Position numbers and translations under genes: made by a program | The notes under the pieces: generated by a model | The model's input: the letters and a program-made list of their open reading frames with translations, nothing else | What the model was told of the DNA's origin: nothing | Databases searched by the model: none | NCBI GenBank assembly: GCA_963828165.1 | Contig: CAWHDR010000001.1 | Span: 1,376,001-1,440,000 of the forward strand | Origin: an uncultured Chloroflexia bacterium | GTDB taxonomy: Bacteria > Chloroflexota > Limnocylindria > Limnocylindrales > CSP1-4 | DNA length: 64,000 nt | Reading direction: 5' to 3' | In this document: one piece after another, positions 2,181-34,366 of the stretch | Numbering within the stretch: the first letter of the stretch is position 1 | How the letters are laid out: each line of letters opens with the position of its first letter

Positions 2181-3533
2181 TTAACTGACCTCTGCGAACC
2201 GCTCCCCCGCGTAGCTCACGAACCGCGTCTGGCGCTTCTTGAACCACAGCTGGATCTCGCCGGTGGGGCCGTTGCGGTGCTTGGCGAGCTTGAGATTGAT
2301 GACCTCGCCGTCGGTCTCCTGGTCCTCGGGGCCGCTGCGTTCCTTGTCGCGCCACAGGAACATCACGAGATCGGCGTCCTGCTCGATGGCGCCCGACTCG
2401 CGCAGGTCCGACAGCCGCGGTTCCTTGGACTCGCGCATCTCGGGCTGCCGGGACAGCTGTGACAGGGCGATGACCGGCACGCTCAGCTCGCGCGCAAGCG
2501 CCTTGAGCCCGCGCGAGATCTCCGACACCTCCTGGACCCGGTTGGCGTCGCGGTTCGTCGTGGTCGCCTGCATCAGCTGCAGGTAGTCCACGATGATCAG
2601 GTCCAGGCCCGACTCCGCCTGGAGCCGGCGCGATTTGGTCCGCAGCTCCATGGCCGAGATGTTGGGCGAGTCGTCGATGTACATCGGCGCTTCCGACAAC
2701 GAGTTCATCGCCGGTGCGATGCGCGCGAAGTCGAGCTCCTCCAGGAACCCCGAGCGGAGCCGCTGTGAGTCGATGTTGGCGACGCTCGACAGCATCCGGA
2801 GCACCAGTTGCTCCTTGCTCATCTCGAGGCTGAAGACGCCGACCGTCTTGCGCTCCTTGACCGCGGCATGCTCGGCGATGTTGAGCGCGAAGCTCGTCTT
2901 GCCGACCGACGGGCGGGCGGCGAGGACGATGAGGTCGCTCGGCTGGAGGCCGGTCGTCAGCGCATCGAGATCGGCGAAGCCCGTTCGGACGCCGGAGATC
3001 TCGCCGCGGTGCGCGTGCAGGTAGTCGAGCCGGTCGTAGGCGTCGTGCAGCAACGACTTGAGTGGCGAGAACCCCGCGTCGACGCGTTTCTGGCTGACCG
3101 CGAAGAGCTCGGACTCGGCGCGGTCGATCGCCTCCTGGATCTCGGCCGGGTCCTCGTACCCGATGCCGGCGATCCGGCCCGCGGCCCCGATGAGATTGCG
3201 CAGGACCGCCTTGCGCTCGACGATCCGCGCGTACTGGGCCGCGTGGACCGCGGTCGGGGTCTCGTTGCTGAGACTGGAGAGGTAGGCCCGCCCGCCGACC
3301 GCCTCGAGCTCCTCGCGCCGCTCGAGCGACTCCGCGACGGTGACGATGTCGATGGGCTCGCGGCGTTCGAACAGGTCGATGATCGCGGCGTAGATGCGGG
3401 CGTTGGCCTGGCGATAGAAGTCCTCCGGCCGCAGGAACTCGGCGACCTCGACCACGGCATCGCGGTCGATGAGGATCGCGCCGAGCACGGATTGCTCGGC
3501 TTCGAGACTTTGCGGCGGCAGGCGATCGATCAC
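2181..3533 (-). CDS. dnaB: Replicative DNA helicase DnaB
   Basis: N-term PPQSLEAEQSVLG, Walker A AARPSVGKT, IVDYLQL, LSDLRESGAIEQDAD, KHRNGPTG; no intein. Confidence 0.98.
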   Translation of the reverse strand: MIDRLPPQSLEAEQSVLGAILIDRDAVVEVAEFLRPEDFYRQANARIYAAIIDLFERREPIDIVTVAESLERREELEAVGGRAYLSSLSNETPTAVHAAQYARIVERKAVLRNLIGAAGRIAGIGYEDPAEIQEAIDRAESELFAVSQKRVDAGFSPLKSLLHDAYDRLDYLHAHRGEISGVRTGFADLDALTTGLQPSDLIVLAARPSVGKTSFALNIAEHAAVKERKTVGVFSLEMSKEQLVLRMLSSVANIDSQRLRSGFLEELDFARIAPAMNSLSEAPMYIDDSPNISAMELRTKSRRLQAESGLDLIIVDYLQLMQATTTNRDANRVQEVSEISRGLKALARELSVPVIALSQLSRQPEMRESKEPRLSDLRESGAIEQDADLVMFLWRDKERSGPEDQETDGEVINLKLAKHRNGPTGEIQLWFKKRQTRFVSYAGERFAEVS

Positions 3534-29815: not shown

Positions 29816-30808
29816 GTGCTCGTCGAATCGGTCCCGAACGTGTCCGAAGGTCGCCGGCCCGACGTCGTCGACCGGATGGCGGAGGCGATCTCGTCGGTCC
29901 CCGGTGTCTCCTTGCTCGACCGCACGAGCGACGCGAGCCACAACCGCTCGGTGTTCACGATCGCCGGCGAGCACGAGGGGGTCACGACGGCCCTGGAGAA
30001 CCTCGTCGAGAGCGCGATCCACGAGATCGACATGGACACCCACGAAGGGGAGCATCCGCGCATCGGCGCGGTCGATGTCATCCCGTTCATCCCGCTCGCC
30101 GATGCGACGATCGACGCGTGCGTCGACCTGGCGCGCTCGTTCGCCGAGCGCATCGCGACCCGGTTCGACATCCCCGTCTACCTGTACGCGCGCGCCGCAA
30201 CGAGGCCCGACCGCGAGAAGCTCGCCGACGTCCGCCGCGGGCAGTACGAGGGCCTGCGGGCCGAGATCGGTCAGCGCGGCCGTGAGCCCGATTTCGGTCC
30301 GGCCCACCTTCACCCATCGGCCGGGGCGATCGCCGTCGGAGCGCGGCCGTTCCTCATCGCCTACAACATCAACCTCGACACGACGGACGTCGATCTTGCG
30401 AAGCGGATCGCCCGGCGCGTGCGCGAGTCGGGCGGGGGACTGCCCCGGGTGCAGGCCAATGGCTTCGAGGTTCGCGAGCCGGAACGTGGCCACCCACTCC
30501 GCGCCCAGGTCTCGATGAATCTCCTCGACTTCACCGTGACGCCACTCTGGGTCGTCTGGGACGCCGTCCGCGACCTCGCGGCGGAAGACGGCGTGGAGCC
30601 CGCGGAGTCCGAGCTCATCGGGCTCGCACCGCTGGCCGCCTTCCTGGATGTCGCCGACCGGGCCGGCGCGGACGCAGACAAGCCGCTCGACGAACGGCTA
30701 CGAGCCGCGGCGACGTACCTTCGCCTGCGGGACTTCTCGCCGACGCAGGCGCTCGAGCTACGCCTCGAGGAAGCGCGCGGATCGCCCGGCGGGCGCCACG
30801 CCCCATGA
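29816..30808 (+). CDS. ftcD: Glutamate formimidoyltransferase
   Basis: LVESVPNVSEGR, HNRSVFT, HPRIGAVDVIPF, RRGQYEGL, QVSMNL. Confidence 0.95.
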   Translation: MLVESVPNVSEGRRPDVVDRMAEAISSVPGVSLLDRTSDASHNRSVFTIAGEHEGVTTALENLVESAIHEIDMDTHEGEHPRIGAVDVIPFIPLADATIDACVDLARSFAERIATRFDIPVYLYARAATRPDREKLADVRRGQYEGLRAEIGQRGREPDFGPAHLHPSAGAIAVGARPFLIAYNINLDTTDVDLAKRIARRVRESGGGLPRVQANGFEVREPERGHPLRAQVSMNLLDFTVTPLWVVWDAVRDLAAEDGVEPAESELIGLAPLAAFLDVADRAGADADKPLDERLRAAATYLRLRDFSPTQALELRLEEARGSPGGRHAP

Positions 30809-32166
30809 CCAGCTCGTTCCGCGTCATCGAGGGCGGCCGCACGGGTGAGCTCACCCCGGGCTTCCTCGTCGTCGGCGCCTCGGAGGTCGTCACGCTGGAC
30901 GGCGGCGTACGGCGCGGCCCTGGACAAGGCGAGGTAGGGCGCCTCGTGGCGGACGATCCAGCGGGGCCCGAAGCGCCGTCCGTCGCGGGCTGGGAGGGTC
31001 GGATCGTTGCGGTTGGGCCACGCGCGGCGGTCGAGGCTGCGCTGGAAGCGGAGGGCTTGCCGCTCGGTCGGTTCGCCCGGATCGACGCGGCGGGAGGGGC
31101 GGTCACTCCCGGGCTCATCGACCCGCACACGCACCTGCTGTTCGCCGGGTCGCGCGAACACGAGCTCGTGCTGCGTCAGGAAGGCGCGTCGTATCTCGAC
31201 ATCCTGGCGGCGGGCGGCGGGATCCTGTCCACGGTCGCCGCGACCCGCGCTGCCTCGGAGGGCGAGCTGCTGGCCCACGGACGCCGATGGCTCGATGAGA
31301 TGCTCGGCCATGGCGTGACCACGATCGAGGCGAAGTCCGGTTACGGGCTCGATCTCGAGACCGAGCTGCGCCTGGTCGACATCGCGCACCGGCTGGGTCG
31401 CGAAGGGCCGATCGATGTCGTGCCGACTTGGCTGGGTGCCCACGCCGTGCCGCCCGAGTTCCGGTCGCGCCCGGACGGGACCGAAGCGTACGTGCGCTCG
31501 GTGATCGACGAGCAGCTCCCTGGGATCGCCGCCCACGGTCGGGCACGCTTCGCCGACGTGTTCTGCGAGACCGGGGTGTTCACGCCGGATCAGTCGCGCC
31601 GGGTCCTCGAGGCAGCCCGGGGGTTCGGCCTGGAGCCCCGGCTCCACGCCGACGAACTGGCACCTTCCGGCGGAGCGGAGCTGGCCGCCGAGCTCAACGC
31701 CGCCTCGGCCGACCACATGGCCACGCCGTCGAAGGCGGGCATCCGCGCGATGGCCGCGGCGGCCGAGGCCGGAAATCCGGTGGTGGCGACCTTGCTTCCG
31801 ATCACGACCTGGTTCCTCATGAAGGATCACCACGCCCCGGCCCGCGCATTCGTCGACGCCGGCGTGCCCGTGGCGATCGGCACGGACTTCAACCCCGGGA
31901 CCTCACCGGCACCGAACCTCGCGTTGGCCATGTCGTTCGCGTGCGTGAACCTGGGCCTGTCGCCGGACGAGGCCCTCTCGGCCGTCACGATCAACGCGGC
32001 CCGCGCCCTGTCGCTCGAGGACGAGATCGGCTCCCTCGAGCCCGGCAAGGCGGCCGACCTCGTCATCTGGCGGGTGCCGACGACGGCGCAGATCCCGTAC
32101 TACCCGGGCGCGGACCTCGTGCGGACCGTCATCAAGCGCGGTCGGGTGGTCCTCGACCGACCGTGA
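30805..32166 (+). CDS. hutI: Imidazolonepropionase
   Basis: PGLIDPHTH, GGGILSTV, EAKSGYGL, DVFCE, TDFNPG. Confidence 0.96.
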   Translation: MTSSFRVIEGGRTGELTPGFLVVGASEVVTLDGGVRRGPGQGEVGRLVADDPAGPEAPSVAGWEGRIVAVGPRAAVEAALEAEGLPLGRFARIDAAGGAVTPGLIDPHTHLLFAGSREHELVLRQEGASYLDILAAGGGILSTVAATRAASEGELLAHGRRWLDEMLGHGVTTIEAKSGYGLDLETELRLVDIAHRLGREGPIDVVPTWLGAHAVPPEFRSRPDGTEAYVRSVIDEQLPGIAAHGRARFADVFCETGVFTPDQSRRVLEAARGFGLEPRLHADELAPSGGAELAAELNAASADHMATPSKAGIRAMAAAAEAGNPVVATLLPITTWFLMKDHHAPARAFVDAGVPVAIGTDFNPGTSPAPNLALAMSFACVNLGLSPDEALSAVTINAARALSLEDEIGSLEPGKAADLVIWRVPTTAQIPYYPGADLVRTVIKRGRVVLDRP

Positions 32167-32213
32167 CGCGACGGTGAGCCGCGGTGGAGGCCGCTGTGCG
32201 AGAATCGTCTGGC

Positions 32214-32888
32214 ATGGAGATGACGTGGTACGGCCGGACCTGTGTCCGGTTGCGTGGCAAGGACGCGGTCGTCGTGGCGGATCCGTATCAGGCGGTGGTC
32301 GGCCCGACCGGGCGGGGTATCACCGGCGACATCGTGACCTTCAGCCACCCCGATGACGCCCCGCTCGCCAAGGCGAAGGGCAAGACCTCGCGCGATGGCA
32401 AGACGCGGCTGCCATCCAGTCTCGACGACGCTTTCGTCCTCGACGGGCCTGGGGAATACGAGGTCAAGCAGGTACTGATGACGGGGATCCGCACCTACCG
32501 CGACGACGTCCGCGGGGCGACGAAGGGAAAGAGCGTCTCCTTCGCCGTCGAGATCGACGGCGTGCACACGATCCACCTCGGTGACATCGGGCACCTGCTG
32601 TCGGAGGAGAAGCTCGGCGATATCGGGTCGATCGACATCGCCTGCGTCCCGCTTGGCGGGGAGCTCAGCCCGGTCAGCGCCGCGGCGCTCGTCGCCCAGC
32701 TGGACCCACGGATCGTGGTGCCCATGCCCCTGTGCGACAACGAGGCGGACTGTGCCGAGGTCCTCGCCAGGTTCTTCCACGAGATGGGCGCCGAGCCGGT
32801 GACCCAGCCGAAGCTGTCGGTCACCTCCTCGAGTCTCCCGGTCGAGACGACGACGGTCCTCCTCGAGGCGCGCGGCAAGCAGGTCTGA
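32214..32888 (+). CDS. MBL-fold metallo-hydrolase-like protein (degenerate metal site)
   Basis: MEMTWYG..C, DPY, GPGEYEV, IHLGDIGH, IVVPM; HxHxDH replaced by SHPDD. Confidence 0.85.
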   Translation: MEMTWYGRTCVRLRGKDAVVVADPYQAVVGPTGRGITGDIVTFSHPDDAPLAKAKGKTSRDGKTRLPSSLDDAFVLDGPGEYEVKQVLMTGIRTYRDDVRGATKGKSVSFAVEIDGVHTIHLGDIGHLLSEEKLGDIGSIDIACVPLGGELSPVSAAALVAQLDPRIVVPMPLCDNEADCAEVLARFFHEMGAEPVTQPKLSVTSSSLPVETTTVLLEARGKQV

Positions 32889-32917
32889 GACGCGCGCGTC
32901 CGAGTCCGGCGGACATG

Positions 32918-32993
32918 GAAAGACCGGAGGCGCCTGCCCAATCGGCGCCCCCGGTCGGAGGGAGGGAGGATGGAACCTCTCGGTTCTGTCCGC
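32918..32993 (-). ncRNA. Candidate small RNA with anti-SD C-rich tract and intrinsic terminator
   Basis: -10 TAGCGT (33004-32999), -35-like TCGACC 16 bp upstream; GAACC-GAGA-GGTTC hairpin; CATCCTCCCTCCCTCC; 13-bp stem then TTT; both flanking CDSs are on the + strand. Confidence 0.6.
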
Positions 32994-33100
32994 TGCCTAC
33001 GCTACGGGTCGGTGATTCACGGTCGAGCCGCCAAGCGATTAAGAAAGCGACATCGACCCCCGGATCTGACCGCCACCGAGCCCGTGCCACAATCCCGCCC

Positions 33101-34366
33101 ATGACCCTCCATGCCCCCAGGCGTCCGCTTGCACTGCTCGCCGCGGCCGCCCTGTTCTTCGCGGCCTGCGATCCGGCCGTGCCCAGCGCCACGCCGACGG
33201 CCAGCCTGTCCGCATCGCCGCAGAGTGCTCCTCCGAGCGCGGTCTCGAGCGCCGCGACGGACGCCATCTACGACACCATCGAGACCCAGGTCCTGGAATT
33301 GCGCGGCCTGAAAGCGGTGGACGTCAAGCGCGAGACCATCGATGAGGAGGCGCTCAAGGCGTTCAACGTCGAGTCGTTCGACGAGGACAACCCGCCGGAC
33401 TACGTCGCCGCCAGCGAGCAGCTGTACAAGGCCTTCGGCCTGATGCAGCCGGAGCAGTCCCTCAGGCAACTGTTCCTCGACCTGATCGACAGCCAGGTCG
33501 CCGGCTTCTACAAGCCGGACGACAAGGCCCTGTACGTCGTCTCGCGAACCGGCACCATCACCGGCGCCGACAAGATCACGTTCGCGCACGAATACGACCA
33601 CGCGTTGCAGGACGCGAGCTTCACGGTGTTCGCGGATCAGAAGGACCTGCTCGACGAGACGGATCGAGCCCTCGCGCGCGCGGCCGTCTACGAAGGGGAC
33701 GCGACGCTGCTCATGGTGCTGTGGGCAGGAGGCAACCTGACCCCCGAGGAGTTCGCCGACGTGCAGGCGGCCGGGGCCGATCCGGAGTCGATGGCGGTCC
33801 TCGCCCGAACCCCCGCGATCCTCGTCGAAAGCCTGCTCTTCCCGTACACGGCCGGCCAGGCCTTCATCCTTCCGGTCCAGACGGCTGGCGGCTGGACCGC
33901 CGTGAACGCCATCTACGACGAGCTGCCTCGCTCGACCGAGCAGATCCTCCACCCCGACAAATATCGAGCGGGCGAGGAGCCGGTCGCGGTCAAGCTGCCG
34001 GCGACGCTCGCGACCGAGATGGGCGACGGCTGGACCGAAGCGATCCAGGACACGTTCGGCGAATTCCAGCTCGGCGTGTGGCTGCGCCAGTCGGGGATCG
34101 CCGCCGGCGACGCGTCCGCCGCGGCCGCCGGATGGGGTGGCGATCGCCTGGCCGTGCTCGATGGTCCGGGTGAGGACTGGGCGGTCGTGATGCGCTCGAG
34201 CTGGGACACCGATGAGGACGCCACGGCCTTCCGGCAAGCGGCCGGTGACGCCGTCACGGGCGTGCCGCACCCGGGCACCGTCATCGCCGATGGCCGTGAC
34301 GTCACGGTCGTCTTCGCCGCAGCCGACGACATCCTCGACCGCGCGGTCGAGGCGGCCGGCTACTAG
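33101..34366 (+). CDS. Lipoprotein, putative zinc metallopeptidase
   Basis: Lipobox FAAC; VAGFY, FAHEYDHALQD (HExxH), EGDA, FPY..G, STEQILHP, GWGGDR. Confidence 0.85.
   Translation: MTLHAPRRPLALLAAAALFFAACDPAVPSATPTASLSASPQSAPPSAVSSAATDAIYDTIETQVLELRGLKAVDVKRETIDEEALKAFNVESFDEDNPPDYVAASEQLYKAFGLMQPEQSLRQLFLDLIDSQVAGFYKPDDKALYVVSRTGTITGADKITFAHEYDHALQDASFTVFADQKDLLDETDRALARAAVYEGDATLLMVLWAGGNLTPEEFADVQAAGADPESMAVLARTPAILVESLLFPYTAGQAFILPVQTAGGWTAVNAIYDELPRSTEQILHPDKYRAGEEPVAVKLPATLATEMGDGWTEAIQDTFGEFQLGVWLRQSGIAAGDASAAAAGWGGDRLAVLDGPGEDWAVVMRSSWDTDEDATAFRQAAGDAVTGVPHPGTVIADGRDVTVVFAAADDILDRAVEAAGY

Follow-up and report, generated by a model that had tools for sequence, protein, structure and literature searches.

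A Candidate Family of Small RNAs with an Exposed C-Rich Anti-Shine-Dalgarno-Like Tract in Soil Chloroflexota

The Locus

A 64,000-nucleotide (nt) stretch of DNA from an uncultured Chloroflexia bacterium (assembly GCA_963828165.1, contig CAWHDR010000001.1, positions 1,376,001 to 1,440,000; called the window throughout) contains a 212-nt intergenic gap between two plus-strand genes, one for a metallo-beta-lactamase (MBL)-fold hydrolase and the other for a lipoprotein-like protein. On the minus strand of this gap, comparison with related genomes supports well a predicted gene for a small RNA (sRNA) of ~77 nt, whose features are collected in Table 1. We put the odds at slightly better than even, about 0.55, that this sRNA acts in trans and independently of the RNA chaperone Hfq, using a tract that resembles the anti-Shine-Dalgarno (anti-SD) sequence to cover the ribosome-binding sites (RBSs) of other transcripts. 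The organisms involved belong to Candidatus Limnocylindria, Chloroflexota that are known, in the named records found, only as metagenome-assembled genomes (MAGs). The RNA occurs in nearly every genome of two soil Chloroflexota families and, probably, in a diverged form in one more. It represents a ready-made RNA family with a covariance model, a promoter, a terminator, and a seed, and it offers a concrete handle on posttranscriptional control in organisms that mix leaderless genes with genes led by a Shine-Dalgarno (SD) sequence.

Table 1. Coordinates of the predicted sRNA gene and its neighbors in the window, and of the tandem copies at locus L097
Feature	Position	Strand	Remark
Upstream promoter element TTTCTTAA	33039..33046	-	about -54 to -47; conserved motif
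-35-like hexamer TCGACC	33021..33026	-	CT.G core in consensus of 52; 16 nt ahead of -10
-10 hexamer TAGCGT, TANNNT type	32999..33004	-	T, A, and final T invariant
Predicted transcription start, G	32991	-	7 nt past -10; inferred from comparison
5' hairpin GGA/GAACC-GAGA-GGUUC/UCC	32968..32991	-	minimum free energy fold and consensus fold
C/U-rich tract CCUCCCUCCCUCC, proposed seed	32957..32969	-	three overlapping CCUCC units
Unpaired part of C/U-rich tract	32957..32967	-	lies between both hairpins
Terminator hairpin, 13-bp stem	32922..32956	-	arms 32956..32944 and 32934..32922
Terminator loop GAUUGGGCA, 9 nt	32935..32943	-	core AUUGGGC
T-rich tail UUUCCAUGUC	32912..32921	-	RNA 3' end expected near 32915
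Lipoprotein-like gene	33101..34366	+	open reading frame with signal-peptide-like N-terminus and HEYDH motif; divergent neighbor, context only
MBL-fold hydrolase gene	32214..32888 (reading frame 32184..32888)	+	Pfam PF13483, E 3.9e-30; context only
L097 tandem copies	2004-2100, 2257-2351, 2484-2575, 2698-2790, 2915-2996	-	

The original prediction, made from the letters of the window, had described a candidate anti-SD sRNA here, and the features that it named can be found on the minus strand. The promoter-like pair TCGACC and TAGCGT is present with its 16-nt spacer, as are the RNA body GCGGACA-GAACC(GAGA)GGTTC-CATCCTCCCTCCCTCC and the C-rich run, which reads CCTCCCTCCCTCC at 32969..32957. The 13-bp stem with a 9-nt loop is followed by TTTCC, and its sole non-Watson-Crick position is a G·U pair on the minus strand and an A·C mismatch on the plus strand. 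A 7-nt inverted repeat that was said to bracket the element (GCGGACA at 32909-32915 and TGTCCGC at 32987-32993) is also present in the DNA but is not part of the element. The TGTCC core of its 3' arm is kept in only part of the genus alignment, and it is absent, by eye and uncounted, from the tails viewed in a second family. The element instead extends farther upstream than was predicted, up to the conserved TTTCTTAA at 33046..33039.

Taken alone, the features listed for this single window are weak and do not exceed chance. The C tract, with at most one mismatch allowed, occurs once in the window against 0.28 occurrences expected, and one match or more turned up in 24 of 100 shuffles. The minimum free energy (MFE) fails to separate the strands, with -41.0 kcal/mol (z -2.9) for the minus strand and -40.1 kcal/mol (z -2.3) for the plus strand. 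A search of positions 32000-34000 for tRNA and tmRNA found none. The element stands beyond chance because it is conserved and covaries in relatives.

Evidence for a Structured RNA on the Minus Strand

Of 24 genomes from the window's genus, 22 keep the intergenic core (window ~32910-33055) at 75-94% identity, and the intergenic DNA flanking it cannot be aligned within the genus. Two covariance models were built. R1 was made from 22 of the 23 genus sequences, the excluded one being cut by a contig end, and R2 from 68 matches in 65 of 76 loci, with 11 near-identical genus or family loci and two weak matches left out. Throughout these 68 sequences the terminator helix has standard pairs in 100% of cells with none unpaired, and 9 of its 13 pairs have changed on both sides. 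The covariation score is 0.438 as compared to 0.163 for shuffles (0 of 500 reach the observed value) and at most 0.126 for slid controls, in an alignment that was fitted to the model and so favors structure, the terminator helix being nearly free of insertions and deletions (indels). The stem sequence itself has been replaced between families: it reads GAGCGCCGGUGUC/GGCACCGGCGCUC in the second family versus GACCGGAGGCGCC/GGCGCCUCCGGUC in the window, and despite this replacement the loop core AUUGGGC is invariant in both.

The strand can be read from the same alignment. Forty cells of the terminator stem are G·U or U·G, and the same cells would be A·C or C·A mismatches in a plus-strand RNA. Of the 68 members, 65 have four or more T residues within 10 nt past the stem, against a genomic background of ~70% G+C, while on the opposite strand the stem would be followed by GGAGGGAGG. 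These 40 wobbles with no mismatches, the T-rich tail, and the fixed promoter geometry together place the RNA on the minus strand.

In the 5' hairpin, length and sequence vary and pairing is kept, with 95-97% of cells paired and compensatory changes in all 8 pairs of the model-fitted alignment. Between the two hairpins the CCCUCCCUCC tract stays unpaired, and its CCCUCCCUC(C) portion is nearly invariant, the second family included. Of 63 predicted RNAs, 61 have an MFE fold that leaves at least 75% of the 12 nt ahead of the terminator stem unpaired. As modeled, the RNA would thus present a conserved and accessible single-stranded seed, and the three overlapping CCUCC units in it repeat the anti-SD core of 16S rRNA three times. 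The predicted length ranges across the family from 76 to 106 nt (median 88). The possibility that the RNA strand encodes a peptide was dismissed on inspection, without a dedicated test, because of the indels in the 5' hairpin.

A Conserved Promoter

Upstream of the predicted RNA, a TTTCTT(A/C)A motif is found in 64 of 68 family members, and a TANNNT hexamer follows 41-43 nt past the start of TTTCTT in 63 of the 68, at exactly 42 nt in 52. The five members that lack this spacing carry near-variants of the motifs. The middle bases of the -10 hexamer vary (TAGCGT, TAGTGT, TAGGGT, TACCTT, TACCGT, and others), and the promoter consensus of the 52 sequences has a CT.G core at the -35 position. With exact spacing, the +1 position is a purine in 49 of 52 sequences (G in 41 and A in 8), and in both families this position is also the opening base of the 5' hairpin. 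The pattern TTTCTT[ACT]A-N33-35-TANNNT occurs in the window's genome at this locus only. Placement of TTTCTTAA at -54 to -47 suggests an UP element or a (class I) activator site, and an UP-like element in turn suggests high expression. On this comparative evidence the locus appears to form a discrete and independent minus-strand transcription unit, with its own promoter and a hairpin/T-rich intrinsic terminator, as had been proposed from the single window.

Distribution of the RNA

R1 finds one copy in the window's own genome. Across the window's family it matches 140 of 151 genomes, the window's own among them; for high-quality genomes the figure is 80 of 81, and for genera it is 46 of 49. 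A sample of the order gave matches in 104 of 108 genomes within this family and a single marginal match (E 1.4e-3) among 42 genomes of the sister family, whose genomes are ~1.1 Mb in size. When R1 and R2 were applied to a sample of the class, the window's family gave matches in 43 of 44 genomes. In the second family 47 of 50 matched, each with a single copy, and in the third family of that sample the models matched 0-1 of 49 (the lone match has E 0.0099). Inspection of four third-family genomes showed no element ahead of the MBL gene in any of the four. In a sample of the phylum, R2 matched 13 of 13 genomes of the first two families and gave one weak match in the remaining 137 genomes (1 from the sister family and 136 from other families). 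The tallies include unpublished genomes, G121 and G177 in the family and G312, G306, G330, and G323 in the class sample, which contributed no sequence to any alignment or model; leaving unpublished genomes out gives 137 of 148 in the family, 44 of 47 in the second family, and 0 of 48 in the third.

When genomes of named species were scanned for an exact pattern, at least 119 stretches matched. Among the 80 pattern matches listed, 77 belong to MAGs labeled Chloroflexi, Chloroflexota, Chloroflexia, or Candidatus Limnocylindria/Limnocylindrales, and R2 matches 78; of the two exceptions, one is a record from Pseudomonas and the other a MAG of Nitrososphaerota. In a MAG titled Gemmatimonadales, a 1570-bp contig (L143) contains a full match to the RNA model at 60.6 bits and is probably a Limnocylindria contig in the wrong bin.

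The original prediction had pointed to Rfam as the place to look for relatives, and no Rfam family matched the window or seven diverse loci of the family. At gathering score, Rfam 15 gave no matches in the whole window. At E <=10, no more than two matches came up in positions 32700-33300, both at chance level (E 7.6 and 9.1); a miRNA-family model accounts for one, which lies on the stem itself (32923-32956, plus strand). At E <=1 nothing was returned on the RNA in the seven diverse loci. In text searches of the literature, with subscription journals outside coverage, we found no paper on small RNAs of Limnocylindria or on such an RNA in Chloroflexi.

One genome holds five tandem copies of the RNA on the minus strand, ~220-250 nt apart (L097, G061:C1:3554700-3559700). 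Four of the copies have TTTCTT..TANNNT at the usual spacing, and the upstream motif of the fifth (2915-2996) is a variant form. The CU-rich tracts have diverged in all five, and the weakest copy has no AUUGGGC loop. Arrays like this one are typical of sibling trans-acting sRNAs.

A diverged, conserved analogue lies ahead of the same MBL gene in the sister family, in 6 of 6 genomes (L217 and L247-L251). Its parts are promoter-like motifs (CTCTTTACC..GATTCACC), a hairpin that covaries and holds CCUCCCUCCC in its loop, a linker reading CCUCCA, and another hairpin, the loop of which is CGGGCAU. This analogue is probably a homologue that the covariance models missed.

Proposed Mechanism

In the mechanism that we propose, the RNA would act in trans and without Hfq. 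Its exposed CCCUCCCUCC tract would pair with the G-rich RBSs (GGAGG, GGGAGG) of a set of mRNAs, and the pairing would block binding of the 30S subunit at those sites, in the way that Yfr1, the CcsR/cuckoo RNAs, and 6C employ their pyrimidine- or C-rich seeds. Occlusion of RBSs in trans is the mechanism that we infer to be the most likely, and it is favored because the arrangement of tract and hairpins matches that of Yfr1 and resembles the motif of the CcsR/cuckoo RNAs, which are discussed below. The setting for such pairing can be described from the genome. The tail of its 16S rRNA is canonical (GGAUCACCUCCUUUCU), and GGAGG lies 3-11 nt before the start in 292 of 2201 crude open reading frames (ORFs), ahead of 4.6% of early candidate starts as compared to 1.3% of internal controls; SD-led targets therefore exist. 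TANNNT lies 5-8 nt before the start in 286 of the 2201 crude ORFs, ahead of 4.4% of early starts versus 0.2% of internal controls, which gives some basis to the remark in the original prediction that many genes here look leaderless. With both signals enriched, SD-led and leaderless genes coexist, and the two types of initiation appear in similar numbers in this crude gene set. That the sRNA might selectively silence SD-led mRNAs, as was also proposed, is speculation. Hfq was not found in this 88%-complete genome, which fits chaperone-independent pairing of a C-rich sequence.

The search for targets was made on several levels. Perfect complements of at least 9 nt to the tract number 138 genome-wide. 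A Pfam search of seven target candidates identified an M14 peptidase-like protein, a flotillin, an MscS-like protein, and an ECF sigma factor, and two candidates are without a family; a candidate inside RecR proved from Pfam to be a false start. The sequence GCCCAAT, which is complementary to the terminator loop, occurs at 119 sites in the genome, five of which lie within ~70 nt of a G-rich motif, and one of these five is the RNA gene itself. Another of the five, a single case in the window's genome (contig C1, 703622-703650, plus strand), reads GCCCAAU-GAC-GAGGGAG and complements the loop and the C tract in antiparallel order, 8 nt before the ATG of a 285-amino-acid (aa) Pro/Thr-rich ORF at C1 position 703647.

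Several results weigh against the proposed mechanism, or against the RNA on which it depends. Duplex energies computed with RNAduplex for 2185 ORF starts are barely enriched over internal controls. At <=-22 kcal/mol there are 123 ORFs as compared to 83 of 6332 control sites, and each ORF score is the best of about three candidate starts (6660 starts for 2201 ORFs). The best perfect-complement candidate, the M14 peptidase-like gene, was rejected for having no orthologue in 45 family genomes. The flotillin gene was set aside as well, as it has an ordinary, variable SD in 12 genus relatives, with a complement to the tract that ranges from ~5 to 10 nt. Pairing of an anti-SD tract also leaves unexplained why the AUUGGGC loop is invariant over two families and why the RNA has one and the same gene, the MBL gene, directly behind it in 70 of 76 loci. 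A generic scan for sigma-70 promoters and terminators gave no sites in positions 32000-34000, the T-rich tail being too weak for a generic terminator scan. Expression of the RNA is a conclusion from comparison.

Alternative Explanations

If the RNA is real, it may still work by other means. One possibility is binding or sequestration of an RNA-binding or ribosome-associated protein, for instance one with a KH, S1, or cold-shock domain, to which the CU-rich tract and the invariant AUUGGGC loop would offer sites. A mere terminator would not usually keep its loop invariant while the stem around it is replaced, the search for targets gave no conserved mRNA, and the UP-like promoter suggests the high expression that titration would need. 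The gene context, however, indicates no partner, as one neighbor encodes a hydrolase and the other a surface lipoprotein. Pairing is the simplest explanation for a tract that is an exact multiple of the anti-SD core, and the diverged tracts of the tandem copies fit diversification of a seed better. We consider a protein-binding role unlikely. Somewhat less probable is a global variant of anti-SD pairing, in which an abundant 16S anti-SD mimic would, instead of controlling a few genes, titrate SD-led mRNAs as a whole and under some condition tilt translation toward the many leaderless ones, with the loop as a second contact to a protein or the ribosome.

The constant position next to one gene also raises the question of whether the element acts in cis, as a leader, attenuator, or transcriptional insulator of the MBL-fold gene with a terminator that controls read-through. 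The linkage extends to all 20 second-family loci, where the MBL gene is again on the same strand and directly downstream, and the diverged analogue of the sister family precedes the same gene in all six genomes. Yet in the loci read, the MBL gene (protein MEITWYGR...) lacks an SD, and 6-10 nt ahead of its start codon lies a -10-like box of its own. The gap between RNA and MBL gene, with the start corrected by 30 nt, ranges from ~12 to >700 nt. The RNA is fully intact in the five loci where the MBL gene is inverted, the window's among them; one genome has five tandem copies, and a copy persists at L083, where the MBL gene is absent. Pairing of the tract with the 5' end of the MBL transcript is no stronger than with shuffled sequence (-9.5 versus -12.6 kcal/mol, n = 61). 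The obligate position in a 5' untranslated region that would mark a cis leader is thus not seen, and we judge a cis-acting role quite improbable.

The remaining alternative places the function on the plus strand or in the DNA. The original prediction had recognized that the G-rich run might be the RBS of an ORF that begins at ATG 32970, and the arrangement invites such a reading: GGAGG lies 8 nt ahead of this ATG, and the 44-codon ORF (32970..33104) ends with a stop that overlaps the ATG of the lipoprotein-like gene (ATGA), to which it would be coupled. The ATG is present in only 13 of 23 genus sequences, however, the remainder having ATC, AAA, AAG, or ATA, and the reading frame is shifted by indels in the hairpin loop. 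In 11 of 68 members no start codon is within reach of the G run and there is no opposite-strand ORF; in the others such ORFs are 2-80 aa long, and the peptides sampled are unrelated. A mere promoter or operator for the neighboring genes, making no stable RNA, would be the corresponding explanation at the DNA level, and the compensatory stem changes argue for a structured RNA over a protein-binding DNA site. All 40 wobbles, moreover, favor the minus strand. We regard a plus-strand or DNA feature as highly improbable, and pairing of the sRNA with RBSs in trans stays the preferred reading.

Relation to Known C-Rich sRNAs

We rate the RNA as a new family within a known kind, the conserved sRNAs with a C-rich seed. 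sRNAs of the RoxS/RsaE type in Firmicutes have C-rich motifs that pair with G-rich RBS regions; they are unlike the RNA described here in sequence, structure, and lineage, and no Rfam match links the two. The closest parallel in architecture is Yfr1 of cyanobacteria, in which an unpaired, ultraconserved pyrimidine-rich motif is described as pairing with the RBS of target mRNAs, those of the som porin genes, and inhibiting their translation (PMC2796815). Both are short RNAs with an unpaired CUCC-containing motif flanked by two stem-loops, and both are near-universal in one lineage (PMC2796815). The motif is ACUCCUCACAC in Yfr1 and CCUCCCUCCCUCC in the RNA of the window, and the hosts are cyanobacteria in one case and Chloroflexota in the other (PMC2796815). 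The RNA of the window is therefore no Yfr1, which is defined by ACUCCUCACAC between stem-loops in cyanobacteria, even though its architecture is the same, and the Yfr1 family is among those of Rfam that gave no match. The Chloroflexota RNA differs further in that the loop of its terminator is invariant and its upstream promoter element fixed. The targets of Yfr1 are reported to have been validated by experiment (PMC2796815), whereas for the Chloroflexota RNA there are candidates only.

In Alphaproteobacteria, the CcsR/cuckoo RNAs are described as bearing a CCUCCUCCC anti-SD motif in the loops of two hairpins, and CcsR of R. sphaeroides as being processed from the 3' untranslated region of a DUF1127 gene behind an RpoHI/HII promoter (PMC8034643). 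Tandem sibling repeats, as in the five-copy array of one family genome, are a shared trait on this account (PMC8034643). The differences are that the motif here is in a single-stranded linker, that four of the five array copies have promoter motifs at the usual spacing, and that the neighboring genes are lipoprotein-like and MBL-fold hydrolase genes rather than DUF1127. Neither CCUCCUCCC in two hairpin loops nor a DUF1127-linked locus was found, and a tract in a loop, as in CcsR, is seen only in the diverged analogue of the sister family. The 6C sRNAs of high-GC Gram-positive bacteria have a C-rich seed in their loops and, in the work cited, bind several mRNAs without an RNA chaperone (PMC6486639). 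The likeness is that of a C-rich seed RNA in a high-GC organism, here one in which no Hfq was found; the tract here lies between hairpins and not in loops, no Rfam match was obtained, and the phyla are unrelated. An exposed seed of anti-SD type, known from cyanobacteria, Alphaproteobacteria, Actinobacteria, and Firmicutes, has probably arisen again in another phylum.

Neighboring Genes and Genomic Context

The lipoprotein-like gene lies divergently upstream of the RNA in 67 of 76 loci. In the window it has a CACAAT -10-like box at 33088..33093, 7 nt ahead of its ATG, which is the leaderless type of arrangement. The protein has no Pfam family, and it scores 139 bits against the NCBIfam Hvo_1808 family surface protein, under the cut-off of 200. 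The MBL gene most likely starts at ATG 32214, with a GAGAAT box 8 nt ahead, and the GTG at 32184 is probably 10 codons too early. Both neighboring genes thus look leaderless.

The MBL gene is convergent with the RNA in the window and co-directional with it in the 70 loci mentioned above; it is inverted in five of the 76 loci and absent from L083. The inverted loci (L001, L002, L003, L004, and L009) form a genus sub-group that includes the window and are set apart from the other 71. The inversion carries the promoter of the MBL gene with it, and on either side the orientation of the RNA gene and of the hutI-like gene is unchanged. Histidine-utilization-type genes occupy 29816-32166, namely a formiminotransferase (FTCD_N/FTCD) and an imidazolonepropionase-like amidohydrolase. 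In most loci of the window's family the amidohydrolase gene stands beside the pair of RNA and MBL gene; nothing was seen that would connect it to the RNA. Directly past the MBL stop and before the RNA 3' end, positions 32879-32910 contain GC-rich overlapping palindromes (GACGCGCGCGTC and its neighbors), which may be the MBL gene's own terminator in the inverted arrangement.

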